IMG/VR virus record: IMGVR_UViG_3300044684_000224
Span: 14,820 to 78,819 of that record
Reading direction: 5' to 3' (one strand)
DNA length: 64,000 nucleotides
DNA from: a virus
Below, piece after piece: positions 14,587 to 63,401 of the stretch; position 1 is the stretch's first letter; the number at the start of each line of letters is the position of its first letter. The position numbers were made by a program, and so were the translations under genes. Under the pieces are notes generated by a model. The model did no database searches, was not told the DNA's origin, and saw nothing but the letters and a program-made list of their open reading frames with translations.

Positions 14587-14991
14587 CTATCCGGTTCGCC
14601 GGCGCCGGAACGCGCGCTGTTCGTTGATCCAGTCCACGGCGTCGTTGAGGCGTTTCAGGGCCTCGTTCCGGCCGTGTTTGTCTTCCCAGAACTTGTAGAC
14701 ATCCATCAGTTCCCGCTGTTCCTCTGTGAGCGGCGGGGGCTGTTCTCGTTCCAGTGGCAGTGGGTCGCCGCCGGCAAGGACAGACTCGAACGAGCCGGGC
14801 CCTAGGCCGATCACCGGCTCCATCTGCGCGGCCTTGTGCGCCTGCGGCAGTCGTGTGCCGTCTTCGACGCCGGTCCAGGTGCCGCGGTCGACGCCCGCCT
14901 GCGCGGCCGCCGACCGGATGCTTAGTCCTCGCCGTGTGCGTTCTCGGCGCACTATCTCGGCGAGCCGTGCCCTGTGTCCCCCGACTGGCAT
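14587..14991 (-). CDS. Immunity repressor (CI-like XRE HTH)
   Basis: RERTRRGLSIRSAAAQAGVDRGTWTGVEDG; divergent from a Cro-like gene and near the integrase. Confidence 0.85.
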   Translation of the reverse strand: MPVGGHRARLAEIVRRERTRRGLSIRSAAAQAGVDRGTWTGVEDGTRLPQAHKAAQMEPVIGLGPGSFESVLAGGDPLPLEREQPPPLTEEQRELMDVYKFWEDKHGRNEALKRLNDAVDWINEQRAFRRRRTG

Positions 14992-61839: not shown

Positions 61840-62415
61840 TCACTGGCGTTGCTCCAGCGGGCCGGACGAGTCGACGGCGAGCAGTCCTTCGAGGCGAGCA
61901 ACCTTGCGGTTCAGTTCCTCCACCGAGACGTTGTGCTCGACAAGCTTCCGACCCTGCACCTTGAGTCGCCCCTCGGTGATTGCCTGCGCCTGTTCCAGTG
62001 AGGTGATCCGTTGGTCGTGCTGCCGAAGTTGCCGGGAGTGCGCGTCCAGCCTGATCGTCTGCTGCTCGTGCTGGGCGAGTTCCAGCACGCTCAGATCCTC
62101 GACGCGCGTGCCGCGCAGCGTCTCCAGCCCTCGCCGGACCTGCCGGCCGGCGCGCTTCCGTCGATTGCGCGCCTGGTCGGCATGCTCACGTGCGGCAGCT
62201 ATGCGGTAGCCGACGCCGCGCACGTTCACCGCAGTGCGACGGTCGCGATCCTGAAGTAGCCGGATGGCGTCATACAGGGCCGCTCGACTCGCCACCAGGT
62301 CAACGCCGCTGGCCTCGTCCAGTTCCGCGAGGGTGAACACCTGGTCGACTCCACCGGTACGCAGCACGTTGTAGATCAGTTCACGCTGCGACAGTTCCGC
62401 CTTGGTCTCGAACAT
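61840..62415 (-). CDS. Winged-helix plus coiled-coil protein, coupled to the RAMP gene
   Basis: 191 aa MFETKAELSQ..; FTLAEL..helix..VNVRGVGYRI wing; heptad C-terminus; TGATG overlap at 62413-62417. Confidence 0.75.
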   Translation of the reverse strand: MFETKAELSQRELIYNVLRTGGVDQVFTLAELDEASGVDLVASRAALYDAIRLLQDRDRRTAVNVRGVGYRIAAAREHADQARNRRKRAGRQVRRGLETLRGTRVEDLSVLELAQHEQQTIRLDAHSRQLRQHDQRITSLEQAQAITEGRLKVQGRKLVEHNVSVEELNRKVARLEGLLAVDSSGPLEQRQ

Positions 62416-63023
62416 CAGTCGACCACCTTGAAGGTCGAGACCTGGAAGCGCCCGTAGCGGAGACGGAAGTCGCCGAGTCCGGCGATGGCGCCAGCGCGGT
62501 CCACGATGGTCTGGAATTTGTCGATGTCCAGCACGGTGTCGTCCACCTGCCACAGGGAGGTCAGTGCCCATTTGTGGAGCTTCGGACGGCAGCGCATGAT
62601 CTTCACTCGCTGCTGCCCGGTCGGCCGGTAGTCGACATACGGCGAGCCTTCGAGCCCAGCACCCCAGAGTTTGTCGAGGGTACGCGGCCCCTCGTAGATC
62701 AGGGGGAGTTTGCCGTCTTCGGACGCGTCGGTCAGTCCGTCGCGGATGTAGCCGCCGTCCGATGTTTTCTTCGCCGCCGCGTGGATGGACGCCCACATCA
62801 TCTGCGCCGGCAGGTATGGGCCGTAGACCTGGTCCCAATACCAGGACATCTCCCATTCCAGCCACGCAATGCGGAGCAGAACCTCCTCGGTCTTGTCCTT
62901 CCCGCGCTTGCGGGCGAGAGAGGTCTTCTCTTTGTTGCTGGGGTCGAACGGGTTTACCAGGCGTTCGGCGTTGTGGATGAGCAGTGGACGGGTGCCACTG
63001 ATGCCGATCTCGATGGTTTTCAT
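62415..63023 (-). CDS. Stand-alone RAMP/Cas7-like RNA-binding protein (VIPR-like effector)
   Basis: N-terminal strand IEIGISGTRPLLIHN, GPYLPAQMMWASI, RCRPKL..W and C-terminal Gly-loop AGAIAGLGDFRLRYGRFQV, characteristic of RAMPs; AAGGGAG RBS; no other cas genes nearby. Confidence 0.72.
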   Translation of the reverse strand: MKTIEIGISGTRPLLIHNAERLVNPFDPSNKEKTSLARKRGKDKTEEVLLRIAWLEWEMSWYWDQVYGPYLPAQMMWASIHAAAKKTSDGGYIRDGLTDASEDGKLPLIYEGPRTLDKLWGAGLEGSPYVDYRPTGQQRVKIMRCRPKLHKWALTSLWQVDDTVLDIDKFQTIVDRAGAIAGLGDFRLRYGRFQVSTFKVVD

Positions 63024-63093: not shown

Positions 63094-63370
63094 CTGTGCG
63101 CGCCAAGGACTCGAACCCTGGTGTCTGCCCGTCACGCTCCGTCCCTACCTCACCTCGCCTGGCCACACCGCACCTCGCCGGACCCAGCCCAACCCAGCCC
63201 CACTGTGTGCGCCGGGGCCTCGAACCCCGGTGACTGCCAGTCGCACTCCGTTGCCAAACCTTGCCCTGCCACACCCAACGCAGCCGTACCGAACCACGCC
63301 GCACCGGACCCCACTCAGCCTCACCTCATCGCACCCAGCCATGCCACACGGTGCCAAACACAGCCCTACC
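63094..63370 (-). ncRNA. GGY-NN pentamer guide-like RNA array: two units, each a pentamer tract plus a 48-nt structured tail
   Basis: Tract A 63251-63370: 24 pentamers, 19 exact GGY and all 24 with Y at position 3. Tail A 63203-63250. Tract B 63145-63199: 11 of 11 GGY. Tail B 63094-63141. Tails are 39/48 identical. Confidence 0.85.
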
Positions 63371-63377
63371 AAAGAGA

Positions 63378-63401
63378 GCGTCCAGGACCAGCGTCCAGGA
63401 C
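63378..63401. repeat. 11-bp direct repeat GCGTCCAGGAC x2 upstream of the pentamer array
   Basis: 63378-63388 and 63391-63401. Confidence 0.75.

Follow-up and report, generated by a model that had tools for sequence, protein, structure and literature searches.

A VIPR locus from an uncultured actinobacterial phage, with tRNA-like T-loop minihelices predicted behind its putative guide RNAs

The closest described relatives of the locus considered here are the VIPR (Viral Interference Programmable Repeat) systems, a CRISPR-like kind first described in 2026, in which Vipr, a minimal Cas7-like RAMP protein, is combined with vrRNAs made of 9–16 YNNGG repeats and a structured 3' tail (bioRxiv 10.64898/2026.04.26.720920). 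By the definition given there, a vrRNA has at least four tandem YNNGG units, typically 9–16; each repeat is bound by one Vipr protomer, which holds GGY, and the NN bases pair with double-stranded DNA, one target base being skipped per unit. The skipped bases fall mostly at wobble positions, the 1-nt skip rule has been experimentally established for GGY/NN vrRNAs, and the VIPR complex silences the transcription of rival phages and satellites (bioRxiv 10.64898/2026.04.26.720920). In Escherichia phage SUSP1 the tail is a pseudoknot that stays on the RNA and caps the filament, whose assembly runs 3'-to-5' from the tail (bioRxiv 10.64898/2026.04.26.720920, 10.64898/2026.04.26.720927). Arrays of vrRNAs interspersed with hammerhead ribozymes are found in VIPR types I and V (bioRxiv 10.64898/2026.04.26.720920, fig. 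S19).

The present locus comes from the IMG/VR record IMGVR_UViG_3300044684_000224, of which positions 14,820 to 78,819 were analysed, a stretch of 64,000 nt hereafter called the window. The source contig is viral, 93,360 bp long with around 66% G+C, and its DNA bears a weak similarity to sequenced actinobacterial phages; the sequence is present in two DNA metagenome runs, from soil/rhizosphere, and was found in no RNA run. The minus strand, read from about 63400 to 61840, carries two vrRNAs, then vipr and then a coupled candidate for the accessory gene vap, in the following order:

63377..63401, minus strand: direct repeat of 13 nt (TCCTGGACGCTGG followed by TCCTGGACGCTC) that adjoins tract A on its upstream side and ends a few bases before the first pentamer
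63251..63370, minus strand: repeat tract of vrRNA-A, 24 GGY/NN pentamers, 19 of them with a perfect GGY
63204..63250, minus strand: tail A, a tRNA-like T-loop minihelix predicted from covariation and the covariance model R1
63145..63204, minus strand: repeat tract of vrRNA-B, 11 perfect GGY/NN pentamers (63199-63145) with a degenerate AGTGG (63204-63200) in front
63095..63144, minus strand: junction unit GGACG and tail B, a second predicted T-loop minihelix (R1 60.6 bits, E 1.2e-12)
62415..63023, minus strand: vipr, 202 aa, a Cas7-like RAMP protein, with the ribosome-binding site AAGGGAG before its ATG
61840..62415, minus strand: candidate vap accessory gene, 191 aa, its start overlapping the vipr stop (TGATG)

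The product of vipr matches the PDB entry 36pp_D, 'SUSP1 Vipr protein', with a phmmer E of 3.8e-14 (residues 1–196 against 1–188) and about 28% identity; it was assigned to phrog_4652, and its AlphaFold2 model (pLDDT 93) finds its best Foldseek matches in Csm3/Cmr4. The locus is a phage-borne, CRISPR-like VIPR system, and the explanation taken as a whole—that an uncultured actinobacterial phage carries a VIPR system whose tail-capped guides act in the manner proposed below—appears highly probable. The gene that follows vipr is a candidate vap on the strength of synteny and a weak similarity: its homologues adjoin vipr in nine other loci, including gp33 of Mycobacterium phage LittleE, and it gives a weak local BLASTP match (E 0.002) to the gene that occupies the vap1 position in phage wV8, a member of the SUSP1 clade. 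No Pfam family was matched by this candidate. Its N-terminal part has the look of a winged helix by eye (motif VRGVGYRI), followed by long helices, perhaps a coiled coil, and there is a structural resemblance, at low TM, to GntR/MarR regulators, the single-sequence AlphaFold2 model being of low confidence at the N-terminus.

Set beside the Type II VIPR systems of SUSP1 and of a Pseudomonas fulva prophage (bioRxiv 10.64898/2026.04.26.720920, 10.64898/2026.04.26.720927; PDB 36pp), the locus shares a Vipr of the same length that can be aligned end to end, GGY/NN guides placed upstream of vipr and each followed by a structured 3' tail, carriage by a phage and an absence of self-targeting; the candidate vap would match their accessory gene in being small, coupled and probably of winged-helix type. 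The locus departs from them in that the host is probably an actinobacterium and that one tract has 24 units, which exceeds the published range of 9–16. A broader parallel might be struck with the Cas7 backbones of Class 1 CRISPR systems (Csm3/Cmr4), with which the present Vipr shares its fold and, as a family trait, the principle of a guide RNA that is coated by a protein filament and has bases flipped out at regular intervals. Unlike those systems, the locus has no repeat-spacer array and the vipr-vap unit lacks cas5, cas6, cas8 and cas10; moreover, the period is 5 rather than 6 and there are fixed bases inside the guide. The direct repeats of 20–40 nt with unique spacers that make up a CRISPR array are wanting here, the only repeat having a 5-nt period.

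The tracts were re-read from the minus strand and re-cut by script, which returned NN strings identical, letter for letter, to those decoded in the earlier note: AG TG TT AC GT AT TG GC GA GA TG GG for units 1–12 of tract A, CC GC GT TC AC TG TG GT AG AA TT AA for its units 13–24 and TG TG TG CC GA GC GT CA GA GA AG for tract B. The pyrimidine that the note had claimed always to occupy position 3 is indeed there as C or T in all 35 units of the two tracts taken together, with G at position 2 in 34 of the 35 and at position 1 in 31. The five units with degenerate triplets (TGT, CGT, GAT, AGT and CGT) all belong to tract A, and tract B is flanked by one more degenerate unit on either side, i.e., AGTGG (63204-63200) and GGACG (63144-63140). 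When (GGYNN)x5 was sought with at most one mismatch, 23 matches were obtained in the 64-kb window, all on the minus strand within 63142-63355, against an expectation of 1.13 and a maximum of 5 in shuffles (none of the 100 shuffles reached 23); tracts A and B are the sole occurrence in the whole 93-kb genome. That the tracts are no microsatellite, as the note had also argued, is borne out by two of the five positions being unconstrained and by the silence of Tandem Repeats Finder on them, a silence that is expected since the units have just three of their five bases in common.

Comparable pentamer arrays emerged from a scan of IMG/VR in more than 120 viral contigs ranging from 39 to 70% G+C, and in one of these contigs the array stands directly before a homologue of the gene downstream of tracts A and B. 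A comparison set of 909 units in 73 tracts was drawn from 17 related actinobacterial VIPR loci with G+C-rich arrays; across it, G-G-Y is kept at 93%, 94% and 95%, respectively, and the information content of the NN positions is 0.05 and 0.00 bits, every one of the 16 dinucleotides being used. The earlier note had taken the tracts for an information-carrying scaffold, and had named as the pattern that would speak against this an NN that is invariant among relatives while GGY drifts. The 17 loci present the opposite, with GGY conserved and NN free, and thus the reading of scaffold plus information holds.

These figures bear also on another reading of the tracts, i.e., that they are a scaffold or sponge RNA for an oligomeric protein, each subunit of which would bind one GGY in the way that TRAP binds (G/U)AG triplets, and that NN carries no target information. 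A 5-nt period with a fixed triplet does resemble TRAP sites, and the absence of any target found (see below) would suit such an RNA; it was in fact the initial favourite, and was dropped once the partner protein was matched to Vipr. The partner is a homologue of a protein that has been experimentally shown to present NN for pairing with DNA, and the near-uniform NN of the G+C-rich arrays is a better fit to diversifying positions that bear information than to neutral spacers. We therefore regard a TRAP-like RNA as very improbable, and return to the tracts as the repeat parts of vrRNAs.

That the tracts are guides with their specificity in NN, and that one target base is skipped per unit in a codon-like manner, had been proposed before the partner protein was recognised as a Vipr. 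The first proposal gains support from what has been published for GGY/NN vrRNAs, the membership of the locus among them being shown by the Vipr homologue; the second coincides with the published 1-nt skip rule, and the Vipr homologue adjoins the tracts. By analogy with SUSP1 and P. fulva, one Vipr protomer would sit on each pentamer, holding G-G-Y and presenting the two N bases, which would pair with a double-stranded DNA target in which each third base is passed over; transcription of a rival phage, a prophage or a satellite would be blocked by the resulting filament. Under the 1-nt skip, tract B would read around 33 bp of target and tract A around 72 bp.

The searches for such targets allowed either no mismatch or at most three, which makes them far less sensitive than a search by the published criterion, where a match of NN at 80% or more suffices under the 1-nt skip rule (bioRxiv 10.64898/2026.04.26.720920). 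Exact NNx searches of IMG/VR gave no match for the full tract B, for its units 1–9 or 3–11, or for units 1–10, 8–17 or 15–24 of tract A, and those of JGI metagenomes gave none for the full tract B or for units 13–22 of tract A. No NNx target was found in 47 actinophage records with up to three mismatches, in 401 Actinomycetes genomes with up to two, or in four actinobacterial genomes with VIPR loci with up to three, and 73 related guides run against 1.9 Mb of collected loci showed no enrichment at any skip length. Given this insensitivity relative to the 80% criterion, the negatives are no argument against guide function. Within the phage's own genome, the enrichment of gapped matches over shuffles that the earlier note had proposed to look for did not materialise: of the skips 0–3, skip 3 alone is conspicuous, because there the gene matches itself. 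The best self-match under the 1-nt skip covers 56–77% of NN, which lies within the range of shuffled guides; there is thus no self-target under this rule, as the preprint reports for its own systems. At skip 0, tract B matches one site of its own genome at 18 of 22 NN bases (reverse strand, position 175527 of the concatenated search string) against a best of 17 among 60 shuffles, which is probably due to chance. As no target was found in the collections searched, it is from membership of the family that we infer tracts A and B to encode guide RNAs.

Among the 73 tracts of the comparison no other is as long as tract A, four of whose five degenerate units fall within units 1–12. This excess over the other 72 tracts, together with the clustering of degenerate units and the lack of a target found, would be in keeping with a decayed or inactive VIPR remnant whose tracts are drifting, chiefly in the first half of tract A. 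Such wholesale decay is nevertheless improbable for the locus: vipr and the vap candidate are intact, coupled and conserved, tract B and units 13–24 of tract A are almost perfect, and both tails keep all of their covarying pairs. Within the preferred reading of a VIPR system with guides in both tracts, tract A may be two guides fused together, or may be partly decayed. Its unit 12 (AGTGG, 63315-63311, minus strand) has the same letters as the opening unit of tract B (63204-63200), which follows a tail. This shared unit suggests an origin of tract A by fusion; it may be speculated that two guides were joined after loss of an intervening tail, with the upstream half decaying.

The feature that sets the locus apart is the RNA behind each tract. 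The tail is a structured RNA, and the support for this is comparative. In its roughly 45 nt, the 5' strand of a closing stem is followed by an 11-nt linker with GGCAG and by a 6-bp stem that bears the loop UUCGAGN; the other strand of the closing stem and a terminal AC complete the module. In tail A the closing stem of 5 bp is predicted to join 63246-63242 with 63211-63207, and the 6-bp T stem to join 63230-63225 with 63217-63212 around the loop UUCGAGG, with a pseudoknot pair 63233:63218 and the conserved unpaired AC at the end; under R1 it scores 67.1 bits (E 2.6e-14). Tails A and B are identical at 40 of 50 bases, and both stems show compensatory changes between them. A motif search recovered 122 copies of the tail in 74 viral contigs, and the 91 distinct copies align without gaps. 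In this alignment 87% of the cells are paired, and covariation amounts to 0.449 as against 0.092 in shuffles (0 of 500) and 0.05–0.09 when partners are slid. The pairs 7:44, 8:43, 9:42 and 24:38 change on both sides in 23–50 sequences each. Pair 19:34 is paired in 100% of the copies with six pair types and, along with the invariant C20:G33, would tie the linker to the T-loop's 3' side in an H-type pseudoknot. The closing stem is counted as 5 bp rather than 7, since columns 4:47 and 5:46 are unpaired. Judged by folding energy alone, the structure is not significant (z -1.8 and 0.0).

The loop carries an invariant UUCGAG and is closed by G27:C35, which agrees with the T-loop consensus, G-C closure included. 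The T stem and the closing stem are contiguous on the 3' side, and the AC after the closing stem is conserved and unpaired. The tail thus shows what defines a T-loop minihelix—a 7-nt U-U-C-R-A-N-N loop, closed by G-C, on a stem continuous with the one that joins the ends. Structured tRNA-like modules that serve in processing are known from several settings, e.g., mascRNA at the 3' end of MALAT1, the tRNA-like domain of tmRNA and the tRNA-gRNA arrays engineered for CRISPR multiplexing. Like the mascRNA and tmRNA modules, the tail has an acceptor-like stem stacked on a T arm, a UUCGA T-loop and the G53-C61 closing pair, and sits at the 3' end of a functional RNA; unlike them, it has a closing stem of 5 rather than 7 bp, lacks the D and anticodon arms and has the extra pseudoknot pair from linker to T-loop.

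The tail was also considered as a tRNA, a tmRNA or a member of a known RNA family, and rejected as such: ARAGORN called no tRNA or tmRNA gene in the 64-kb window, and no Rfam family reached its gathering score. At E of up to 10 the only Rfam match was mascRNA-menRNA, which is non-significant (E 3.1; 16 bits, where the gathering score is 42.5). A DNA-level mimic, i.e., an attP or the 3' half of a tRNA, was likewise rejected because both strands of the closing stem exist and covary.

In the 93-kb genome the covariance model R1, which was built from the aligned copies of the tail, detects nothing beyond tails A and B; it detects independent copies behind GGYNN tracts in loci of LittleE, Nonomuraea, Micromonosporaceae and Mycobacteriales, and none in coliphage wV8. 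Other actinobacterial phages, LittleE and Trine among them, also have the T-loop tail in their VIPR arrays. The tail stands behind most tracts of the 17 actinobacterial VIPR loci, as against none of the five tracts of wV8, a phage of the SUSP1 clade, and only 13 of 331 tracts in 80 random viral contigs that bear VIPR. The SUSP1 tail is itself a pseudoknot fold and not the acceptor/T-arm minihelix with a T-loop that is predicted here. Two subtypes of the tail were seen to alternate within one array, both in Nonomuraea sp. (L212:4599-5800) and in a Micromonosporaceae bacterium (L213:1639-2450): subtype 1 has the linker CUGGCAGNCA and the loop UUCGAGN, subtype 2 the linker GAUGGUCGUA and the loop UUCGACU, and both end in the same unpaired AC.

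Among 47 viral records with the tail motif, a Vipr occurs in exactly the six in which GGYNN arrays precede the tail. In the other 41 the motif stands alone, with 1–4 copies per genome and no vipr detected; 32 of these records are at least 90% complete, and many are Streptomyces phages. These solo copies in records devoid of a detected vipr point to a role of the module that is independent of Vipr. Such minihelices without a GGYNN tract are exemplified by those of Streptomyces phages Sujidade (L001:1227-1270), phiScoe10 (L002:1501-1550) and Joe (L003:1501-1547), with more among L015-L087. They lie on the coding strand in unannotated intergenic gaps of around 65 Streptomyces phages (Arquatrovirinae and others), and the changes in their acceptor and T stems are compensatory. 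The solo element seems to be undescribed, and to have no Rfam family.

Two roles may be considered for the tail at the end of a guide. Its pseudoknot pair between linker and T-loop suggests that it would act like the SUSP1 tail and form a cap at the 3' end of each guide. The tail may further mark the cut site of the array transcript: tract B begins on the base right after the terminal AC of tail A, and since the next guide starts there without a spacer, a cut is needed behind this AC. The arrays interspersed with hammerheads offer a parallel, in that a structured RNA module likewise lies between consecutive guides, where the array must be cut. Unlike those arrays, the tail here holds no hammerhead (there is no Rfam match) and by its appearance looks like a substrate of tRNA enzymes rather than a self-cleaver. 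Host tRNA-processing enzymes are thus the obvious candidate for cutting the array, though we would put this tentatively, at somewhat below even chances.

A tail that is purely a retained cap and an anchor for Vipr assembly like the SUSP1 pseudoknot, owing its tRNA look to a convergent T-loop and serving as no tRNA-enzyme substrate, is a reading that falls just short of an even chance. It draws on the retention of the SUSP1 tail on the mature RNA, where it caps the filament, on the perfect covariation of columns 19:34 beside the invariant C20:G33, on the presence of the tail type in VIPR arrays of actinobacterial phages and genomes and its absence from coliphage wV8, and on its going uncalled by ARAGORN and the Rfam tRNA models. 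It is harder to square with the solitary elements of the 41 records without a detected vipr, and with the abutment of the next guide on the tail, where something must cut. The fuller form of the processing view holds that the tail is a host tRNA-processing signal, that the arrays are natural tRNA-guide RNA arrays and that the module was borrowed from the solo elements of Streptomyces phages; RNase P would then cut on the 5' side and the enzymes that trim tRNA 3' ends would act behind the terminal AC. In this full form the proposal is rather unlikely. A bolder version has it that the solo elements may be decoys of the tail that titrate a rival's Vipr.

Upstream of the array, the 13-nt direct repeat may be an operator (e.g., for the winged-helix partner protein) or an element of the array promoter; a simple scan recognised no sigma-70-like promoter for the array.

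Thus, the locus adds to the VIPR systems one from an uncultured soil actinophage that weakly resembles sequenced phages, and extends them into a lineage that goes unmentioned in the main texts of the preprints. The skip mechanism was already published (April 2026). The tRNA-like T-loop tail has no mention in those main texts, in which the words tRNA, RNase P and Streptomyces do not occur either. A cultured counterpart exists in the cluster J mycobacteriophage LittleE (L208:2160-3960, genes 33-34), in which gp34 is the vipr and gp33 the vap homologue. Five guide tracts with T-loop tails lie on both sides of its vipr and vap homologue. The whole set, annotated as hypothetical or left without annotation, is wedged in behind the tape measure gene, with further tail genes on its other side. 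As LittleE has the same architecture and grows on M. smegmatis, the question of the tail is open to a direct test at the bench. It is a lead worth following that the guides of actinobacterial phages end in a tRNA-like minihelix, a fold that also occurs solo in Streptomyces phages. If host tRNA enzymes do cut at the tail, this would explain how the arrays mature, and these phages would possess a natural counterpart of the engineered tRNA-gRNA arrays.
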